Source: an uncultured Gammaproteobacteria bacterium
Lineage (GTDB): Bacteria; Patescibacteriota; Patescibacteriia; Magasanikbacterales; JBBTQS01
Direction of reading: 5' to 3'
NCBI GenBank assembly: GCA_964627525.1
Contig: CAZVIA010000004.1
Coordinates: forward strand, 1,565 to 65,564
DNA length: 64,000 nt
A program made the position numbers and the translations under genes. Below, piece by piece: positions 1 to 24,999 of the stretch (position 1 is its first letter; each line of letters starts with the position of its first letter). The notes under the pieces were generated by a model. The model had not been told where the DNA came from. It did not search any database and saw only the letters and a list, made by a program, of their open reading frames with translations.

Positions 1-170
1 TTGTTTTTGGCCTTCATAATATATGACGTAATGCTAACCAATTTCTTACATTTTGTCTACTTTGTCCAAACCACCCATATATAATAAAAATTAAATAAAC
101 AAACCACGCATACTGTTACATATACGTAGTTTTGTTTTAGTTCAACCCCTAAAACCCCAAACTCCCACAA

Positions 171-1580
171 CTAGTTCACACACAAAACACCATATCGATT
201 CAATCGATACACACCTCCTTGACCAGCAATTGCCATACCACCATCTTCCAAAGACAACACAGCATTTGCTGTATCAAAACCCGCCCCACCAAATGACCGC
301 TCAAACAAAATCCTGCCTTGAGCATCTATTTGACTCAACCACATTTGAGCACTGGTGTTTCCATATGATCTAGTTATGCCAGCTGTAAGCAAATCATTGC
401 CCACACGCCAATCCATTGCATTCACTGAATCATACATCAGACCGCCAAAGGTTTTTTGCCAAACAAAATATCCATCAGAATTAAGCTTGAGCATAAAACC
501 ATCATACTCATACCCATCACCGATTTTGATTTTGCCAGTAACAAAAAAATCCTTGTAAGCATCTTGTGCAACAGCACTTGCCATCTGGTAATCAACAGCA
601 GAATGAAATCTCTCCCACATAATTCCGCCGTTTGTGACAAATTTTGCAACAATAACCCGAGTCTTCAAACCAGGTTGCAGAATTGTGTTACCAACTGCAA
701 CATACTCTCCCTGACCCAAATGCGCGACATCAGAAAGCTGACCACCAGTTTCAACACCTAGCAATTTAGACCACTGCTGAATACCCATGGAATCAATTCT
801 ATAAATCCACGGCGAAGTAGTAACATTTTCCAACACTCCACTTCTGTTTCCAACAATAATAAAACCACCTTCATCATCTGCAACCACTGCGCGAGCTATG
901 TCATCCTTAGTACCACCGTAATCCTCTTCCCAATGCATTTCACCACTTACATCCATGAGCATAACCCAAGCATCTGCTTCACCAAGCCCTGATGAACGAG
1001 TGTAACCCACAACCATAAACTGATCTGCACCACCTTCTGTGTTTTGCACTTTAGAAACTGACCACAGCTTATCTATTTGAGTCCACCCAAACTCTTTTTC
1101 CCAAACCACATTCCCACTTGAATCCAATTTGGTTACACAAGAATTTTGATCATAATCAAATCCAGAAATCAGCTCATGACAAGAACTAATCACAATCAAG
1201 TTACCTTGATCATCTTCAGTCATTGTCAAAACTTCATCCAAGAATTGCTCGCTCAAATCCTTATGCCAGCACTGATAACTATTTTGCACCTCTTCAGATC
1301 CAAACACATCTTCCTTATCCAAAATAGATCTGGGAAAGCCCTCTTGCTCACCTTGCACACCAGTTCCACACTCACAAGGCTCAGCATTTTCACACGGCTC
1401 ACACCCAGCTCTAGAATTTTGCACACTTGCAACACCAAAAGAATAGTACACAACATCATCCATAACACTGTCATGCATTTGAGTTGCATATTCCGCAGTT
1501 TGCTGACAACCTGAAAATTGCCAACCCAACAAACCAAACACAAACCCCAACCACACCAAACTCAAAAAAGACTTTCGCAC
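171..1580 (-). CDS. Secreted lipoprotein with repeated beta-propeller-like (SBBP-type) units
   Basis: The N-terminus MRKSFLSLVWLGFVFGLLGWQFSGC is a lipoprotein-type signal with a lipobox Cys. About 40-aa units of the form D..G...W...FGG...D.A.AV..DGG.I.AG.T.S recur at least five times. Confidence 0.5.
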   Translation of the reverse strand: MRKSFLSLVWLGFVFGLLGWQFSGCQQTAEYATQMHDSVMDDVVYYSFGVASVQNSRAGCEPCENAEPCECGTGVQGEQEGFPRSILDKEDVFGSEEVQNSYQCWHKDLSEQFLDEVLTMTEDDQGNLIVISSCHELISGFDYDQNSCVTKLDSSGNVVWEKEFGWTQIDKLWSVSKVQNTEGGADQFMVVGYTRSSGLGEADAWVMLMDVSGEMHWEEDYGGTKDDIARAVVADDEGGFIIVGNRSGVLENVTTSPWIYRIDSMGIQQWSKLLGVETGGQLSDVAHLGQGEYVAVGNTILQPGLKTRVIVAKFVTNGGIMWERFHSAVDYQMASAVAQDAYKDFFVTGKIKIGDGYEYDGFMLKLNSDGYFVWQKTFGGLMYDSVNAMDWRVGNDLLTAGITRSYGNTSAQMWLSQIDAQGRILFERSFGGAGFDTANAVLSLEDGGMAIAGQGGVYRLNRYGVLCVN

Positions 1581-1708
1581 TTTTCGCTCCTATTCATATT
1601 TAATTCAATTAAGGGATTAAAATATCCTATCAACCAATTTGCGCACAGTCAATAGGATAAACTATGGATAAAGTGTGGTTAAAATTTTGTTGAACCTTAG
1701 CTCAAAAT

Positions 1709-2215
1709 TTACCCCCTCAACAAAACCTTTTGCAACTCGCCCAATCTTTTATAAAAACCAGCACTATGAATTGAGTTTAAACCTAAAGCACAAAAATCAT
1801 AATGATGCATCCACTCATGCAACAAAGTATTTAAAAAAGTTTTTGAAGCTAACATTTGCCCACGCACAGCAGTGCGATTTGTAATATAAATATATTTTGA
1901 CTTTGGGCGATAATAACCATATTGCTTCATCACAGTTCGCCCACCTCTTTTTTTGTGATATTGATTTGTATCACTAATTTTAACATTACAAATATCTATT
2001 TGTGCGAGATCGCAAAGTTCATCTAGCAAAGAAGTGCTGAATTTTTGGCGGGCGCGAGCGGAGCGAGCGCCCAAAATTTCTTCGCACAAAGCACAAACAC
2101 AATCATTCACTTCAAAAGCAACCGCTGTAATACGATTGCTTTTATTATAATTTCTTTTATTACTATTTAAGAAAAACATATCATAGGTCCAACTACCCCT
2201 TCCCACCACTTCCAT
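1709..2215 (-). CDS. SprT-like / DUF45-type zinc metallopeptidase-fold protein
   Basis: It has an HEWMHH (HExxH) motif followed by a conserved His/Ser region, as in the YgjP/SprT families. The N-terminal part contains Cys clusters. Confidence 0.4.
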   Translation of the reverse strand: MEVVGRGSWTYDMFFLNSNKRNYNKSNRITAVAFEVNDCVCALCEEILGARSARARQKFSTSLLDELCDLAQIDICNVKISDTNQYHKKRGGRTVMKQYGYYRPKSKYIYITNRTAVRGQMLASKTFLNTLLHEWMHHYDFCALGLNSIHSAGFYKRLGELQKVLLRG

Positions 2216-4132: not shown

Positions 4133-5131
4133 TTATTTTTTCTTTAAAACTTTTTTCACAGCACTAATAATATTTTTTGATTTCATTCCATACTTTTCCA
4201 ACAACTCTTCTGGAGTACCTGACTCACCAAAACTATCATTAACACCAACTGGTACAATTGGAACTGGTCGTACTTGTGCCAACTCTTCACAAACCACACC
4301 AAACAAACCTCCAGCCATTTGATGTTCCTCAACAGTGACCACACAACCAGTTTTTCGCACAGAAGCTAATAAAGTTTTACGATCAAAAGGTTTGATTGAA
4401 GAACAATTAATTACTTCAGCACTAATTTTATTTTTTGCCAAAACATTAGCTGCAACTAATGCTTCATAAACCAATGGACCGCTCGCAATAATTGTTACAT
4501 CTTTTCCTTTTGCAAAAACTTGTGACTTACCAATTGCAAAACTAGTTTTCTTAGTAGTCATACAAGGGGTTTTTTCACGAGCAAAACGAATGTAAACAGG
4601 ACCATCTAATTTTACAGAAGCATGAATTGCTTTGCGAGTTTCTTCTTCATCACAAGGAACCAAAACTGTCATGTTTGGCAAAACTCGTGTAATAGCTACG
4701 TCTTCCAAAGCTTGATGAGTTGCTCCATCAGGTCCAACAGAAATTCCAGCATGAGCTCCAATAATTTTTACATTATTTTTTGCATAACAAATAGAAACAC
4801 GAATCTGATCCCAATTTCTTCCAGGAGAAAAAACAGCATAACTAGAAATAAACGGAATCATTCCTTCTTGTGCCATACCAGCAGCAACACCTGCCATGTT
4901 TTGTTCCGCAATTCCCATTTGAATAAATCTATTTGGAAATTTTTCCTTAAACCAATGTGAACGAGTGGATACAGTTAAGTCACAACACAACACCACTACG
5001 TTTTCATTTTTTTCTCCAGCTTCAACAACACCCTTTCCATAACCGTCGCGAGTCAAAACCATATCTGGTTCTGTAAAAATATTTTTTTTCAAATTTAATG
5101 ATGGATTTAATTTCATATTATTCGTGTTCAC
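4133..5131 (-). CDS. Transketolase, C-terminal (pyrimidine-binding plus C-terminal domain) subunit
   Basis: It shows the transketolase Pyr and C-terminal domains. The transketolase is split into two genes, as in archaea. Confidence 0.85.
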   Translation of the reverse strand: MNTNNMKLNPSLNLKKNIFTEPDMVLTRDGYGKGVVEAGEKNENVVVLCCDLTVSTRSHWFKEKFPNRFIQMGIAEQNMAGVAAGMAQEGMIPFISSYAVFSPGRNWDQIRVSICYAKNNVKIIGAHAGISVGPDGATHQALEDVAITRVLPNMTVLVPCDEEETRKAIHASVKLDGPVYIRFAREKTPCMTTKKTSFAIGKSQVFAKGKDVTIIASGPLVYEALVAANVLAKNKISAEVINCSSIKPFDRKTLLASVRKTGCVVTVEEHQMAGGLFGVVCEELAQVRPVPIVPVGVNDSFGESGTPEELLEKYGMKSKNIISAVKKVLKKK

Positions 5132-21080: not shown

Positions 21081-22193
21081 ATGTCAAAAACCAATACAGA
21101 ATTTGAAGCAAAAAACAAAGCAGCTGAAATCGCAATTGAACAAATCAAACAGCGATTCGGTGAAAATGCAATCATGAAATTTGGCGAAGCAAAATCATCT
21201 AAAGTAGATTCAATCCCAACTGGGTGTTTGTCTTTAGACATTGCATTAGGAGTTGGCGGAGTACCACGCGGTCGTATCATAGAAATTTTTGGACCAGAAG
21301 CTTCTGGAAAAACAACTTTAGCTCAACACGTAATTGGACAAGTTCAAAAACTAAATGGGATTGCAGCTTTTGTAGATGCAGAGCATGCACTTGATCCAGA
21401 TTATGCACGCAAGATTGGAGTGAACGTTGACGAGTTATTAATTTCACAACCAGACACTGGTGAGCAAGCTTTGGAAATTGTTGAAACTTTAGTGCGATCA
21501 AATGCAGTTGATGTTGTTGTAGTAGACTCTGTTGCAGCACTTGTTCCTAAAGCAGAAATTGAAGGTGAAATGGGAGCACACCATGTTGGATTACAAGCTC
21601 GGTTGATGAGCCAAGCTTTAAGAAAGTTAGCTGGAATTGTTAGTAAATCAAAAACAGTTGTAATTTTCATAAACCAAACTCGAATTAAAATCGGAGTTTT
21701 TTATGGAAATCCAGAAACAACAACTGGTGGAACTGCATTAAAATTTTATTCATCAGTTAGAGTTGAAGTAAGACGTTCAGCACAAATCAAACAAGCAGAT
21801 AAAATAATTGGAAACAGAGTTAAGGTTAAAATCGTAAAAAACAAAGTTGCACCACCATTCCGAACAACTGAATTTGATATCATGTATAACGAAGGAATTT
21901 CAATTGCTGGAGACTTGATTGAAACAGGTGTTGCGCACAAAGTTTTAACTAAATCTGGAAACAGTTATTCTTATGAAGATGAAAAATTAGGCGTAGGTCG
22001 TGAAAAAGCAAAAACTTATTTACGTGAAAATCCTAAGTTGATGGCAAAAATTCGTAAAGAAATTCTAGTGACCATTAATTTGGAAAACGAGGGGGTAGGA
22101 GTGGTAGATGAGGATGTTGAAGAAAAACCAAAGGAAGATTCAGAAGAGAAAGTTGAAGAAAAAATCAGTGGAAACAAAAAAAGCAAGGAGTAA
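21081..22193 (+). CDS. recA: Recombinase RecA
   Basis: It has the [13 protein letters not shown] Walker A and RecA core conservation throughout. Confidence 0.95.
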
Positions 22194-22220: not shown

Positions 22221-22258
22221 ACAAATCATTGCCAAATTTTGGCAATGATTTGTTTTTG
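22221..22258. terminator. Bidirectional Rho-independent terminator (13-bp perfect stem)
   Basis: The hairpin is acaaatcattgcc-aaatttt-ggcaatgatttgt, followed by a T-run. It lies between the recA 3' end and the reverse-transcriptase fragment 3' end. Confidence 0.6.
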
Positions 22259-22280
22259 AATTTCATAAGCATCTGCATAC

Positions 22281-22793
22281 TTACACAAACCCAAATATTG
22301 TTTTTTGCGAAGTTATTTTTTGCTTAAGAATTTGAAGTAAAATTTCATGATCAATAGAATCAAAAAACTTTTTAATATCTATTTTTAAAGACCAGCAGAT
22401 ACGCGAATAATTTTTACTTGATTTACGAGCAAATTTATTTAATCTATTCACTGCAGCATGAGTACCTTTTCCAATTCTACAAGAGTAAGAATCATAAACA
22501 AAACCGGAATCAAACATTGGATACAAAATCCTGTGAATAGCATGATGAACTAATCTATCTCGCACACTGGCTTTATGAATTATCCTGTGTTTTGGATCGT
22601 GGATATGAAATTTGTAATAACCTCCATGTTGATATACTCCTGAAACCAATTCATCTCTCAAACAAAAAATATTATCTTCCAAATATCGTTCAAATAATTC
22701 AACACCTGGCTTGGTTCTCTTTCCCTTAGAAAAATCTTTCCAAGCTAAAAATAAATTATTTAAATTTGTAATCTTATTATATATGTCATCCAT
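22281..22793 (-). CDS. DGR/retron-type reverse transcriptase, N-terminal fragment (motifs 0-2 only, probably truncated)
   Basis: It has LFLAWKDFSKGKRTKPGV (RT motif 0), IHKASVRDRLVHHAI (motif 1), SYSCRIGKGTHAAV (motif 2a) and IDIKKFFDSIDHEILL (motif 2). The ORF then stops, with no YxDD motif or thumb, and only about 30 nt remain before the recA terminator. Confidence 0.6.
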   Translation of the reverse strand: MDDIYNKITNLNNLFLAWKDFSKGKRTKPGVELFERYLEDNIFCLRDELVSGVYQHGGYYKFHIHDPKHRIIHKASVRDRLVHHAIHRILYPMFDSGFVYDSYSCRIGKGTHAAVNRLNKFARKSSKNYSRICWSLKIDIKKFFDSIDHEILLQILKQKITSQKTIFGFV

Positions 22794-23127
22794 ATACGAA
22801 ACTTCTATATTTAAACTTACTTATGATGTGCTTAAAGAAATACATATTGCCAAAAGGTCATTTCTAAAATCAGAAAAATACACGCTTGGTGAAGTGCTTG
22901 AAAATTCCCTACTAAAAACACTTCTTGCAATTGTAAAGACAGGAAAAACAAAGCCCAAGTGGAAACTCCCAGTAATAGAAGAGGCACAGATTCATCTTGA
23001 AAAAACAAAAATACTTATGCGTCTAGCGATTGACCTAGATCAAATTAAAGGCAAACGAATAAATTATCTACGAGAACACACACAAAGAATAGGTCAGGAA
23101 TTGGGTGGGTGGAAACGGTCTTTATAA
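22783..23127 (+). CDS. avd: Avd-like four-helix-bundle protein (DGR accessory variability determinant / 23S-IVS protein family)
   Basis: It is about 114 aa. Its C-terminal IGQELGGWKRSL resembles the conserved ...LGG.I..L end of Avd/IVS four-helix-bundle proteins, and the helical heptad pattern fits. Its start codon overlaps the reverse-transcriptase start on the opposite strand. Confidence 0.6.
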   Translation: MSSIYETSIFKLTYDVLKEIHIAKRSFLKSEKYTLGEVLENSLLKTLLAIVKTGKTKPKWKLPVIEEAQIHLEKTKILMRLAIDLDQIKGKRINYLREHTQRIGQELGGWKRSL

Positions 23128-23131
23128 AAAT

Positions 23132-23158
23132 TTGCAACGCTGATTTGAGGCGTTGCAA
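23132..23158. terminator. Hairpin terminator (9-bp stem ttgcaacgc/gcgttgcaa) between avd and the template repeat
   Basis: The perfect inverted repeat is followed by a TCTCTTTT run on the + strand and an A/T run on the - strand, so it may act as a bidirectional terminator. Confidence 0.5.
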
Positions 23159-23167
23159 ATTCTCTTT

Positions 23168-23297
23168 TACACTCCCGACACGAAGCCGAACCATAACGCG
23201 AGTTCGTATTGTCATCCCAGTTCCAGCTCAACTTCGGTCCGTCGAGCCACAAGTTGAGGTACGCAAAGTTCTCGCGATTGTCACAATGGACAGAACT
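23168..23297 (-). repeat. DGR template repeat (TR)
   Basis: It is 130 bp and 90% identical to 23637..23766. At 11 of the 13 mismatches this copy has A on the minus strand where the other copy has G, T or C. Three AAC codons in the matched frame are among the varied sites. The copy is non-coding, and the overlapping ORF 23109..23300 is spurious. Confidence 0.75.
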
Positions 23298-23545
23298 TAA
23301 TTAGCCAAATTCCTCCCTTTTTCACCACAACTTCCACTTTTCATGGTTATTGTTGTATTTCATTCTGAATCTAAAATTCAATAGAATCTAACCGAAGTGT
23401 ATTTAAAACAAGCTCATCTAAGTACACTGCACAGTATGCTTAATAACTGCACATCTTTGTCATTTTGAGCAATTTCGGGGACAAAAATAAACAATTTATT
23501 ATTGTGCACTACCCTAATCTCAAACAAAGTATATCAAAAAAAGAA

Positions 23546-23573
23546 GACTCTGGCTTTGTTACAAGTCAGAGTC
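23546..23573 (-). terminator. Rho-independent terminator of the DGR target gene
   Basis: The inverted repeat gactctg...cagagtc is followed on the minus strand by a UUCUUUUUUU run. It lies about 60 nt past the target-gene stop codon. Confidence 0.45.
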
Positions 23574-23628
23574 AAAAAAAGGGAAAAGGGATAAGTATTA
23601 AAGAGTGAAGAGGGTCAAAGGGGTAATG

Positions 23629-24369
23629 TTACTTAATACACTTCCGACACGAAGCCGAACCATCACGCGAGTACGCATTGACATCCCAGTCCCAGCCCAA
23701 CTCCGGCCCGTCGAGCCACAAGCCGAGGCACGCAAAGTTCTCGCGATTGCCACAATGGACAGAACTGGGTAGATCCACGTAGTGATCTTGCAGAACCTTT
23801 CTATTCTGGGCAAACAATGCAAGACCCTCCATTGCATCAAGTCCGATTTCATTTTTTTCAAACTCTTTACGACAAGTTTGGACATTCTTTCCTAGATTGC
23901 GCTTACCATCTTGGCACCAAATCCAGTATACATCTTGTTTTTTGACTTGTTCTGGATTGAATGGTTCAAATGTAGAATTGTTTCCAGTGAACTTTACTCC
24001 TAGAAGTTCGCAGACTTTGACAAGTCCGCCGAATTTGAAGCTCTTTCCATCCTCACCTTTAGTACACGCGATGCGTGCATCTACTAGAACAAGTTTGTCC
24101 AAGTAGTCTGGGAGATCTTCAGAACGCTCTGGCTCTGGAGGAATGAACTCAAGGTACTCAGCAAATGTGCTATAACCAAGCACTTCTCCAAAACCACAAT
24201 CCCAGAGGAGTTTGGCTTGGTGTTCGCGGATGTTGCTTTGTTCTTCTGCAACAGTCTCTCCACGCAAAATGCGGATCACAGCTTCCAAGCCACCGAGTTT
24301 GGTGACCAAAGCTTTGACATGCCCAATGCGAAAATCATCGACCTTTTTCACAGAGTCTAGGTCGTGCAT
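23629..24369 (-). CDS. DGR target (variable) protein, 246 aa, with the variable repeat at its C-terminus; no signal peptide seen
   Basis: The ORF has a visibly higher G+C (around 45%) than its neighbours. The C-terminal variable repeat is Trp/Gly/Asp-rich, as in the C-type-lectin-fold variable regions of DGR targets, although the fold is not verified. Confidence 0.65.
   Translation of the reverse strand: MHDLDSVKKVDDFRIGHVKALVTKLGGLEAVIRILRGETVAEEQSNIREHQAKLLWDCGFGEVLGYSTFAEYLEFIPPEPERSEDLPDYLDKLVLVDARIACTKGEDGKSFKFGGLVKVCELLGVKFTGNNSTFEPFNPEQVKKQDVYWIWCQDGKRNLGKNVQTCRKEFEKNEIGLDAMEGLALFAQNRKVLQDHYVDLPSSVHCGNRENFACLGLWLDGPELGWDWDVNAYSRDGSASCRKCIK
23637..23766 (-). repeat. DGR variable repeat (VR), 3' end of the target gene
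   Basis: This copy is the partner of the template repeat. It encodes the C-terminal 43 aa (SSVHCGNRENFACLGLWLDGPELGWDWDVNAYSRDGSASCRKC) of the target protein and ends 5 nt before the stop codon. Confidence 0.75.
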
Positions 24370-24505: not shown

Positions 24506-24787
24506 CTAAAACCGATTCCAAAATCCCTTATAAGCAATTGACCTGTGTCCAATTTTAAAAATTTTAACTTTTTTCTTTTCAATACGAAAAATTACCCTAT
24601 AGTCGCCCACACGTAATTTTCTATTATTTTTCAAAGATTTCCTCAATGGTTTGCCAAACTTTTCCGGTGCTACTAATAATTTTTCCTCAATTGATTTTTT
24701 AATTCTATCCTTAATTGATACACCTAATTTAGGTATATCTTTTTTAACAACTGACTCATGATACTCTATTTCATAACTCATACCCAT
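24506..24787 (-). CDS. relE: Type II toxin, RelE/ParE family
   Basis: It has a C-terminal VGDYRVIFRIE...KIGHR motif. It overlaps the upstream antitoxin gene by 10 nt. Confidence 0.75.
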   Translation of the reverse strand: MGMSYEIEYHESVVKKDIPKLGVSIKDRIKKSIEEKLLVAPEKFGKPLRKSLKNNRKLRVGDYRVIFRIEKKKVKIFKIGHRSIAYKGFWNRF

Positions 24788-24999
24788 ACACTATCATGAG
24801 GAATAAATTCTGCATTATTAGTATCACGTTTTTTAACAATAGTATCCCAAACTTCGTCTTCTTCAATTTCTACTGCTTTACAGATTAATTCCAAAGCTTT
24901 TGTAGCCAAAGGAACACCATCTCTTTCAGCAAGACGACCAAGAATTTTTTCCATTTCTTTGGGTAATGCAAGATTAATACGTTTTTTTAATGTAGGCAT
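24778..24999 (-). CDS. Ribbon-helix-helix (CopG/RelB-type) antitoxin
   Basis: The N-terminal KRINLALPKEMEKILGRLAERDG is an RHH signature, and it sits directly upstream of relE. Confidence 0.6.
   Translation of the reverse strand: MPTLKKRINLALPKEMEKILGRLAERDGVPLATKALELICKAVEIEEDEVWDTIVKKRDTNNAEFIPHDSVWV

Follow-up and report, generated by a model that had tools for sequence, protein, structure and literature searches.

Internal deletion of the reverse transcriptase gene in a chromosomal DGR cassette of a probable Patescibacteria genome, most likely a recently disabled relic

The reverse transcriptase (RT) gene of a diversity-generating retroelement (DGR) cassette located beside recA was gutted by a real internal deletion of about 0.4 kb, and this chromosomal cassette is most likely a recently disabled relic. 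The cassette was analysed within a 64,000-nt stretch of DNA, referred to as the window, and all positions are those of the window unless a contig is named. The host, probably one of the Patescibacteria (CPR), is of low GC content (35.3% in the window), and its DGR is chromosomal. The element is a DGR by its template repeat/variable repeat (TR/VR) signature, its Avd protein, the placement of its VR, and the affinity of its RT N-terminus; the complete RT that is required of a DGR was lacking. The finding in the window is ordinary gene decay, which left a degenerate DGR. We infer that the cassette no longer works and has only begun to decay.

The N-terminal RT ORF occupied positions 22281..22793 of the minus strand, with an ATG start, a TAA stop (22283–22281), and a product of 170 aa, exactly as the earlier note on this DNA had stated. 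Codons 1–165 were homologous to the RT1–RT3 region of DGR RTs, and codons 166–170 (IFGFV) were the C-terminal remnant of the gene read out of frame, past the deletion junction. The N-terminal third to half of a DGR RT was all that the ORF held. Its residues 68–162 corresponded to positions 8–97 of the 205 positions of Pfam RVT_1, with a score of 41.6 bits (cut-off, 29.6). A family profile of 330 positions, built from 115 full-length RT ORFs of related loci, was run without filters on all stop-to-stop ORFs in the six reading frames of the window. The ORF at 22820..22284 matched profile positions 4–169 with 250 bits. The end of the match at position 169, with RT4–RT7 gone, bore out the previous claim that the RT is without its catalytic part.

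RT3, DIKKFFDSIDH, was located inside the 170-aa ORF, and the loss began at RT4. By the standard RT1–7 numbering, the stretch KIDIKKFFDSIDH is RT3, or motif A, which holds the first catalytic Asp. The ORF was without RT4 (the DGR-typical IGxxxSQ), RT5 (YxDD), RT6, RT7, and most of the thumb, and no IGxxxSQ, YxDD, or thumb was found downstream in frame. The motif content given in the earlier note was therefore correct as to the missing YxDD and thumb, but not as to the start of the gap, which opens at RT4 since RT3 is present in the ORF. When compared with a complete DGR RT, composed of RT1–7 and a thumb, the gene retained only profile positions 4–169 and 305–328 of 330. The RT N-terminus grouped with DGR RTs, and its best homologues, L007, L010, and L177, adjoined avd and a TR/VR pair. 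The NCBIfam models for group II, Drt, and retron enzymes scored far under their cut-offs against the RT ORF.

The remnant of the RT C-terminus was found at 22226..22297 on the minus strand. It was composed of 23 codons, YLGLCKYADAYEIQKQIIAKIWQ, and a TGA stop codon, and its frame is +1 with respect to that of the N-terminal ORF. These codons (22297..22229) were matched by family profile positions 305–328 through 22312..22229, with an E-value of 0.023 among the six-frame ORFs of the whole window. With tblastn, residues 115–136 of the C-half of L007 were aligned to 22300..22235 with 54.5% identity (E-value, 1.6e-4). The sequence YLGLCKYADAYEIQKQIIAKIWQ and its stop codon aligned with the C-termini of L007, L010, L178, and L045. 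In the window, tblastn with the C-halves of the relatives gave no match besides 22300..22235, and the six-frame profile search gave two adjacent pieces in different frames and no other match. The possibility that the remainder of the RT lies elsewhere in the window was rejected, as tblastn and the unfiltered six-frame profile search gave only the 23-codon remnant. Recoding or an alternative genetic code was rejected as well, because the ORF ends in TAA and RT4–7 were absent in every frame.

The deletion junction was located at 22296..22299, where the minus strand reads ACAA followed by TATTT. To the left, ACAA belongs to the K-T codons of the N-half, and to the right, TATTTGGG belongs to the Y-L-G codons of the tail. 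Microhomology across the junction was at most 1–2 nt, and the DNA homology to L007, the closest relative, ended at 22297. About 135 codons (about 405 nt), corresponding to profile positions 170–304, were missing. The RT lesion is an internal deletion in which both gene ends were retained, not a 3' truncation. The truncated RT proposed previously was thus right in the loss of the catalytic part and wrong in its form, as the C-terminal 23 codons and TGA persist in the +1 frame. A single deletion of about 0.4 kb fused codon 165, just past RT3, to the last 23 codons in the other frame, and took RT4 (IGxxxSQ), RT5 (YxDD), RT6–7, and most of the thumb. With RT4–7 and most of the thumb removed, the locus is therefore unable to make an active RT.

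A terminator-like hairpin was located at 22221..22253, with a perfect 16+16-nt palindrome of 15 pairs that scored on both strands. The distance between the RT stop codon and this recA hairpin was 27 nt, in line with the short gap of about 30 nt estimated before. The ancestral RT stop codon, which follows IIAKIWQ in the C-terminal frame, was located within the palindrome, and the hairpin was therefore once common to recA and the RT gene.

The closest homologues of the RT were from Uhrbacteria, Magasanikbacteria, and other Patescibacteria. The best 120 database matches to the 170-aa ORF were all 129–252 aa in length, and the best 120 matches to a C-half query were all 123–241 aa. In these relatives, a single RT gene was broken at about profile position 183, in the RT3/RT4 interval, by a frame-changing simple repeat, and the database ORFs are half-length because the repeat shifts the frame at this position. 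A G9 or G10 tract was found in L007/8, L010–12/L094, and L093 (L007 5028–5036, L010 5590–5598, L093 3547–3556, and L094 3590–3598). A (GA)6–25 tract was found in L022, L048, L049, L068, L075, L076, L098, L102, L104, L115, L116, L170, and L177–179. The protein tails of the repeat-bearing relatives ran into GGG... or ERERE..., beyond which RT4 was read in the wrong frame.

Sixteen distinct repeat-bearing elements were represented by DNA, with four in frame and 12 out of frame. The gain or loss of one repeat unit reopened the frame through RT4 in every out-of-frame case tested, and the same one-unit restoration applied to L177 and L178, as judged from their reading frames. The related RT genes that had no repeat (131) were in frame. 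L177, from an NCBI MAG, and L178, from a Hainich groundwater assembly, were the same element, identical over 4,270 nt save for the tract, which was (GA)13.5 in L177 (1740–1766) and (GA)8.5 in L178 (3031–3047); both were out of frame, in different frames. Among the closest matches (at least 206 bits), none was full length, compared with the one-third expected from random phase, and this count was cross-checked by an exhaustive search. The out-of-frame state seems to be the usual consensus among the closest relatives. From its sequence, the RT3–RT4 repeat tract seems to gate the RT, either as a slippage-prone switch or as a recoding site. For the split relatives, the idea that the C-half is translated independently was rejected, as there was no usable start codon after the repeat in L010 and L178. 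No run of seven or more G or C was found in the window, where the position of the tract (about profile position 183) falls within the deleted segment. The ancestor of the window RT probably came from a clade with RT genes that would be gated by a slippage-prone G or GA repeat. The searched literature gave no description of a DGR RT that is frameshifted or interrupted by a repeat, and term look-ups in PMC5758913 and PMC8144416 returned no frameshifted, repeat-interrupted, or internally deleted RT genes.

Loss of the RT with avd and neighbouring parts kept recurs in CPR DGRs, as L060 and L045 were affected likewise. In L060 (403–1248), avd was kept and the RT stopped at profile position 159, followed by unrelated genes; the RT of L060 was thus truncated independently. 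In L045 (4510–7869), a Paceibacterota DGR, the RT was split at about profile position 177 by a 3.3-kb insertion. As read from its translations, the insertion would encode an IS1595-like transposase and a Dam-like DNA methyltransferase with a DPPY motif, and its third, small ORF may encode a nuclease. Other defects were observed in otherwise complete relatives. A single in-frame stop was located in L031 (about 957–961), L062 (about 4360–4367), and L127 (about 1996–2003), and a frameshift with no repeat in L092 (about 4459–4474). An alternative genetic code, sequencing error, or a pseudogene are possible explanations of these four. In L007 (82–2480), a 5S rRNA gene and the 3' end of a 23S rRNA gene were located just upstream of the DGR, and the rRNA region also contained two LAGLIDADG endonuclease ORFs farther upstream.

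On the minus strand, the order of the cassette was the target gene with VR1, a 330-nt spacer, the TR, a hairpin of 13 pairs, the inverted avd, the RT ORF, and the convergent recA. The recA gene (21081..22193, plus strand; Pfam RecA, 7.4e-134, and RecA_C) converges with the RT gene and is a neighbour outside the DGR. The accessory gene avd (22783..23127, plus strand) encodes 114 aa that matched Pfam bAvd PF22296 with an E-value of 3.1e-11 and 44.1 bits, above the cut-off of 40, so that the Avd accessory protein of a DGR was present. The NCBIfam model DivGenRetAVD NF033474 gave 5.5e-14 and 52.4 bits, under its own cut-off of 80. The avd gene was divergent from the RT gene, and their start codons overlapped by 11 nt (22783–22793). 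An inverted avd directly upstream of the RT gene recurred in the relatives, and this arrangement is therefore the normal layout of the clade and not a rearrangement. The TR was parted from the RT gene by the antisense avd, in a layout conserved in the relatives. The 13-pair hairpin at 23129..23161 separates the avd stop codon from the TR, immediately 3' of the latter, and may terminate avd, form a structure on the 3' side of the TR RNA, or do both.

The TR (23168..23297, minus strand) was 130 nt in length and contained 28 adenines, 27 of which were located at codon positions 1–2 of the target reading frame. VR1 (23637..23766, minus strand) was located at the 3' end of the target gene and ended 8 nt ahead of its stop codon. 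When VR1 was compared with the TR, 13 of 130 positions were mismatched, 11 of them at TR adenines, which upholds the adenine specificity reported previously. The target gene (23629..24369, minus strand) encodes 246 aa, and no sequence match to its product, C-type-lectin and Ig folds of the variable domain included, was obtained with Pfam, NCBIfam, or PDB. At 24506–24999, just ahead of the target gene, an ORF for a ParE/RelE-type toxin (93 aa) and a small one upstream of it (73 aa) overlapped by 10 nt; this couple is probably a toxin–antitoxin pair.

Three paralogues, P0276, P0277, and P0278, were found by a homology search with the target protein. P0277 (L181 3496–4209) was located 1.4 kb left of window position 1, and L181 5604–7354 corresponded to window positions 1–1751 with 100% identity. 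P0276 (L180 8001–8777) was located on scaffold_74 (128.5 kb) from the same sample as L001, and P0278 (L185 2325–3161) was located between ftsZ and ftsA, in the same Logan run as L004. The three paralogues probably belong to the same genome as the window, because one overlaps the window, the samples or runs are shared, and the GC contents are similar (36–39%, compared with 35% in the window). For P0277, the assignment was made by the 100% overlap; for P0276 and P0278, by shared samples or runs and similar GC; and for P0276, additionally by a VR that matched the TR of the window.

The VR of P0276 (VR3) had 18 mismatches with the TR, 17 at adenines and one at a non-adenine. One non-adenine difference, at the 3' (IMH-like) end, was common to VR1 and VR3. 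In the VR of P0277 (VR2), 15 differences were located at adenines and 15 substitutions at other bases, in addition to indels and a premature stop, and the VR of P0278 (VR4) had 14 adenine and 20 non-adenine mismatches. By these patterns, VR2 and VR4 are old fossils, and the last rewriting of VR1 and VR3 from the TR came long after the divergence of the paralogues. The cassette has therefore served at least one remote target, P0276 on scaffold_74, which was written recently.

When the window was compared with L001, a 71-kb scaffold from another sample, the two were identical over 12,513 nt except for 14 differences, all within VR1 and 13 of them at TR adenines. This 'second allele' of VR1 was, base for base, the VR of P0276. 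The stretch shared with the scaffold_74 paralogue covered 23538..23826, and all 14 differences were located within 23664–23747. The flanks, 23748–23826 (79 nt) and 23538–23663 (126 nt), were 100% identical between the target and P0276. An 84-nt variable core was thus placed between identical flanks, and the two genes were 8% different farther upstream. The identical flanks suggest gene conversion. Contig L005 was a hybrid that contained the paralogue's four upstream SNPs and the downstream sequence of the window locus, and contig L184 stopped exactly at the end of the stretch shared by the two loci. Therefore, gene conversion or mis-phasing suffices for the second allele and no RT is needed, as independent retrohoming would not yield identical changes at 17 sites. 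The second allele was rejected as proof of retrohoming after the deletion, since it is the VR of P0276, and L005 and L184 are hybrid or broken at the shared flanks. The phasing of VRs to loci on short-read contigs is unreliable around the VRs here.

The earlier note had offered a broken assembly as one explanation of the short ORF; a collapsed repeat or a chimeric join would then hide an intact RT gene. In short-read assemblies of the locus, chimeric joining does occur at the VR-flanking repeat, as seen in at least one contig (L005). At the RT gene, however, the exact 170-aa product adjoined recA on six contigs from independent assemblies, namely ENA SCRA20-1 (two samples), ENA SUTE22-1, JGI 3300009374, JGI 3300009375, and Logan SRR9166041, all with the identical junction. 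Four of the six were 100% identical to the window over their full length, and two differed only in or just upstream of the VR. Because the junction recurs in this way, and its sides, which share so few nucleotides, leave no flanking repeat for a de Bruijn graph to collapse, the junction is no assembly artefact, and such an origin is judged very improbable. The missing part of this RT lineage was also absent from the contigs and proteins of the searched collections. The other member of the 90% cluster of the RT ORF was a single 129-aa N-terminal fragment on a 602-nt contig. The next-best N-half among 5.8 billion proteins had 70% identity (L007), and the next-best C-half, that of L007 itself aside, had 60%. 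The best match of the GTDB genome scan had 60% identity and that of the metagenome scan had 65%, and the genome of the window was not among the matches of either scan. No intact allele of the RT lineage was found in the 90% cluster or in the N-half and C-half protein searches, and the deleted allele is the only one seen in public data. It is extremely unlikely that the 170-aa product is functional, whether paired with a second RT half encoded elsewhere or acting as a fragment that binds RNA or Avd. Its 165 homologous codons are open, with the 250-bit profile score given above, and in many relatives the annotation shows the N- and C-halves as ORFs of their own. However, the halves in those relatives are contiguous and are split only by the frame change at a simple repeat, and the C-halves are without a usable start codon; these are single genes with a frameshift and not two-subunit enzymes. 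Moreover, about 92 kb of the genome yielded no C-half, and the ORF ends in five junk codons read out of frame.

In another explanation, which is considered unlikely, the cassette is still diversifying, and an RT encoded elsewhere, in a second DGR, a phage, or a plasmid, uses the TR RNA and Avd in trans, which would have made the local RT gene dispensable. Such complementation is mechanistically possible by analogy with the Bordetella phage DGR, in which avd, TR, and brt remain functional if they are provided in trans; remote targets are also known (PMC5758913). In agreement with it, avd, the TR, and the VR 3' ends are intact, VR1 and VR3 are almost free of non-adenine changes, and the TR of the window already serves a remote VR on scaffold_74. 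The adjacent target also occurs with two VR sequences in backgrounds identical over 12.5 kb, and 13 of the 14 differences are located at TR adenines. Against this last point, the second sequence is the VR of P0276 from the same sample, flanked by the identical 79-nt and 126-nt stretches. L005 is demonstrably a two-locus hybrid, and L184 ends at the edge of the shared stretch. The 17 identical substitutions are not expected from independent retrohoming, and gene conversion or mis-phasing, without an RT, fits them. The search for a full-length RT proposed in the earlier note, which covered about 92 kb of the genome, did not find one. No second RT was found in the 64-kb window (tblastn and six-frame profile), in 6.7 kb past its right end (L175), in about 5.6 kb past its left end (L173 and L181), or in the 16.8 kb that surround the remote target on scaffold_74 (L180), the flanks searched amounting to about 12 kb. 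The nearest RT on record, that of L007/L008 with 70% identity, was rejected as the trans RT. Its GC content is 42.7%, compared with 35.3% in the window, its context beside a 23S/5S rRNA operon is different, and it was not found in the SCRA20-1 samples, which contain the longest contigs of the organism. The absence of decay in avd and the TR is predicted by trans-complementation, but is equally expected shortly after a recent deletion. A broader version, in which the TR, avd, and VR form an RT-less satellite written by an RT elsewhere and the deletion is the permanent end of a repeat switch that was normally reversible in the ancestor, is likewise doubtful.

The preferred reading, a cassette disabled by the deletion, is in line with the state of its parts. 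The deletion looks evolutionarily recent, because both RT remnants are open and well conserved and the TR and avd are intact. The element would have worked until recently, as the TR, Avd, and two VRs with almost adenine-only mismatches are intact.

When compared with the DGR of Bordetella phage BPP-1 (mtd-VR, avd, TR, and brt), the window element shares the TR/VR pair with adenine-restricted mismatches, the TR adenines at codon positions 1–2, the VR placed 3' in the target ORF, a DGR-type RT, and an accessory gene of the Avd family. It differs in that the RT is without RT4–7 and most of the thumb, avd separates the TR from the RT gene and is located on the opposite strand, the element is found in the chromosome, beside recA, and the target protein has no match among known families. 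CPR DGRs were surveyed in PMC5758913 and PMC8144416, which pick loci with a complete RT, unlike that of the window. As in other CPR DGRs, the family RT is compact (about 330 aa) and the targets are uncharacterised, some of them remote from the cassette. Treponema denticola isolates have kept DGR target genes with no TR or RT (PMC4891356, Table 1). The window resembles them in the natural loss of the diversifying machinery with persisting targets, whereas its loss is at an early stage, in which the TR and avd are intact and both RT ends remain. The RT tracts of the relatives resemble the contingency loci of Neisseria, Haemophilus, and Campylobacter, in that a homopolymer or dinucleotide tract is located inside the gene, one unit more or less flips the frame, and the tract length varies between otherwise identical copies. 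Unlike those loci, the gated gene is the RT of a hypermutation cassette, and its switching is predicted from sequence. In the window, unlike in the relatives, the tract is deleted.

For annotation, the DGR is real, and 'pseudogene remnant' is the proper label for the short ORF, which should be left out of counts of active DGR RTs. In DGR surveys, VR 'alleles' on short-read contigs should be treated with caution, since they can be swapped between paralogous targets with identical flanks. Caution also applies to a large CPR clade whose RT is routinely called as two half-length ORFs owing to the internal repeat tract, and pipelines that require a full-length RT will overlook these repeat-interrupted CPR elements. 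If the cassette were an RT-less satellite, one RT could be common to CPR DGR cassettes. The repeat-gated RT genes of the relatives are more interesting than the deletion in the window and most deserve follow-up. If their repeat tract is an on/off switch, it would be a means of gating targeted hypermutation of a kind that the searched literature does not describe.
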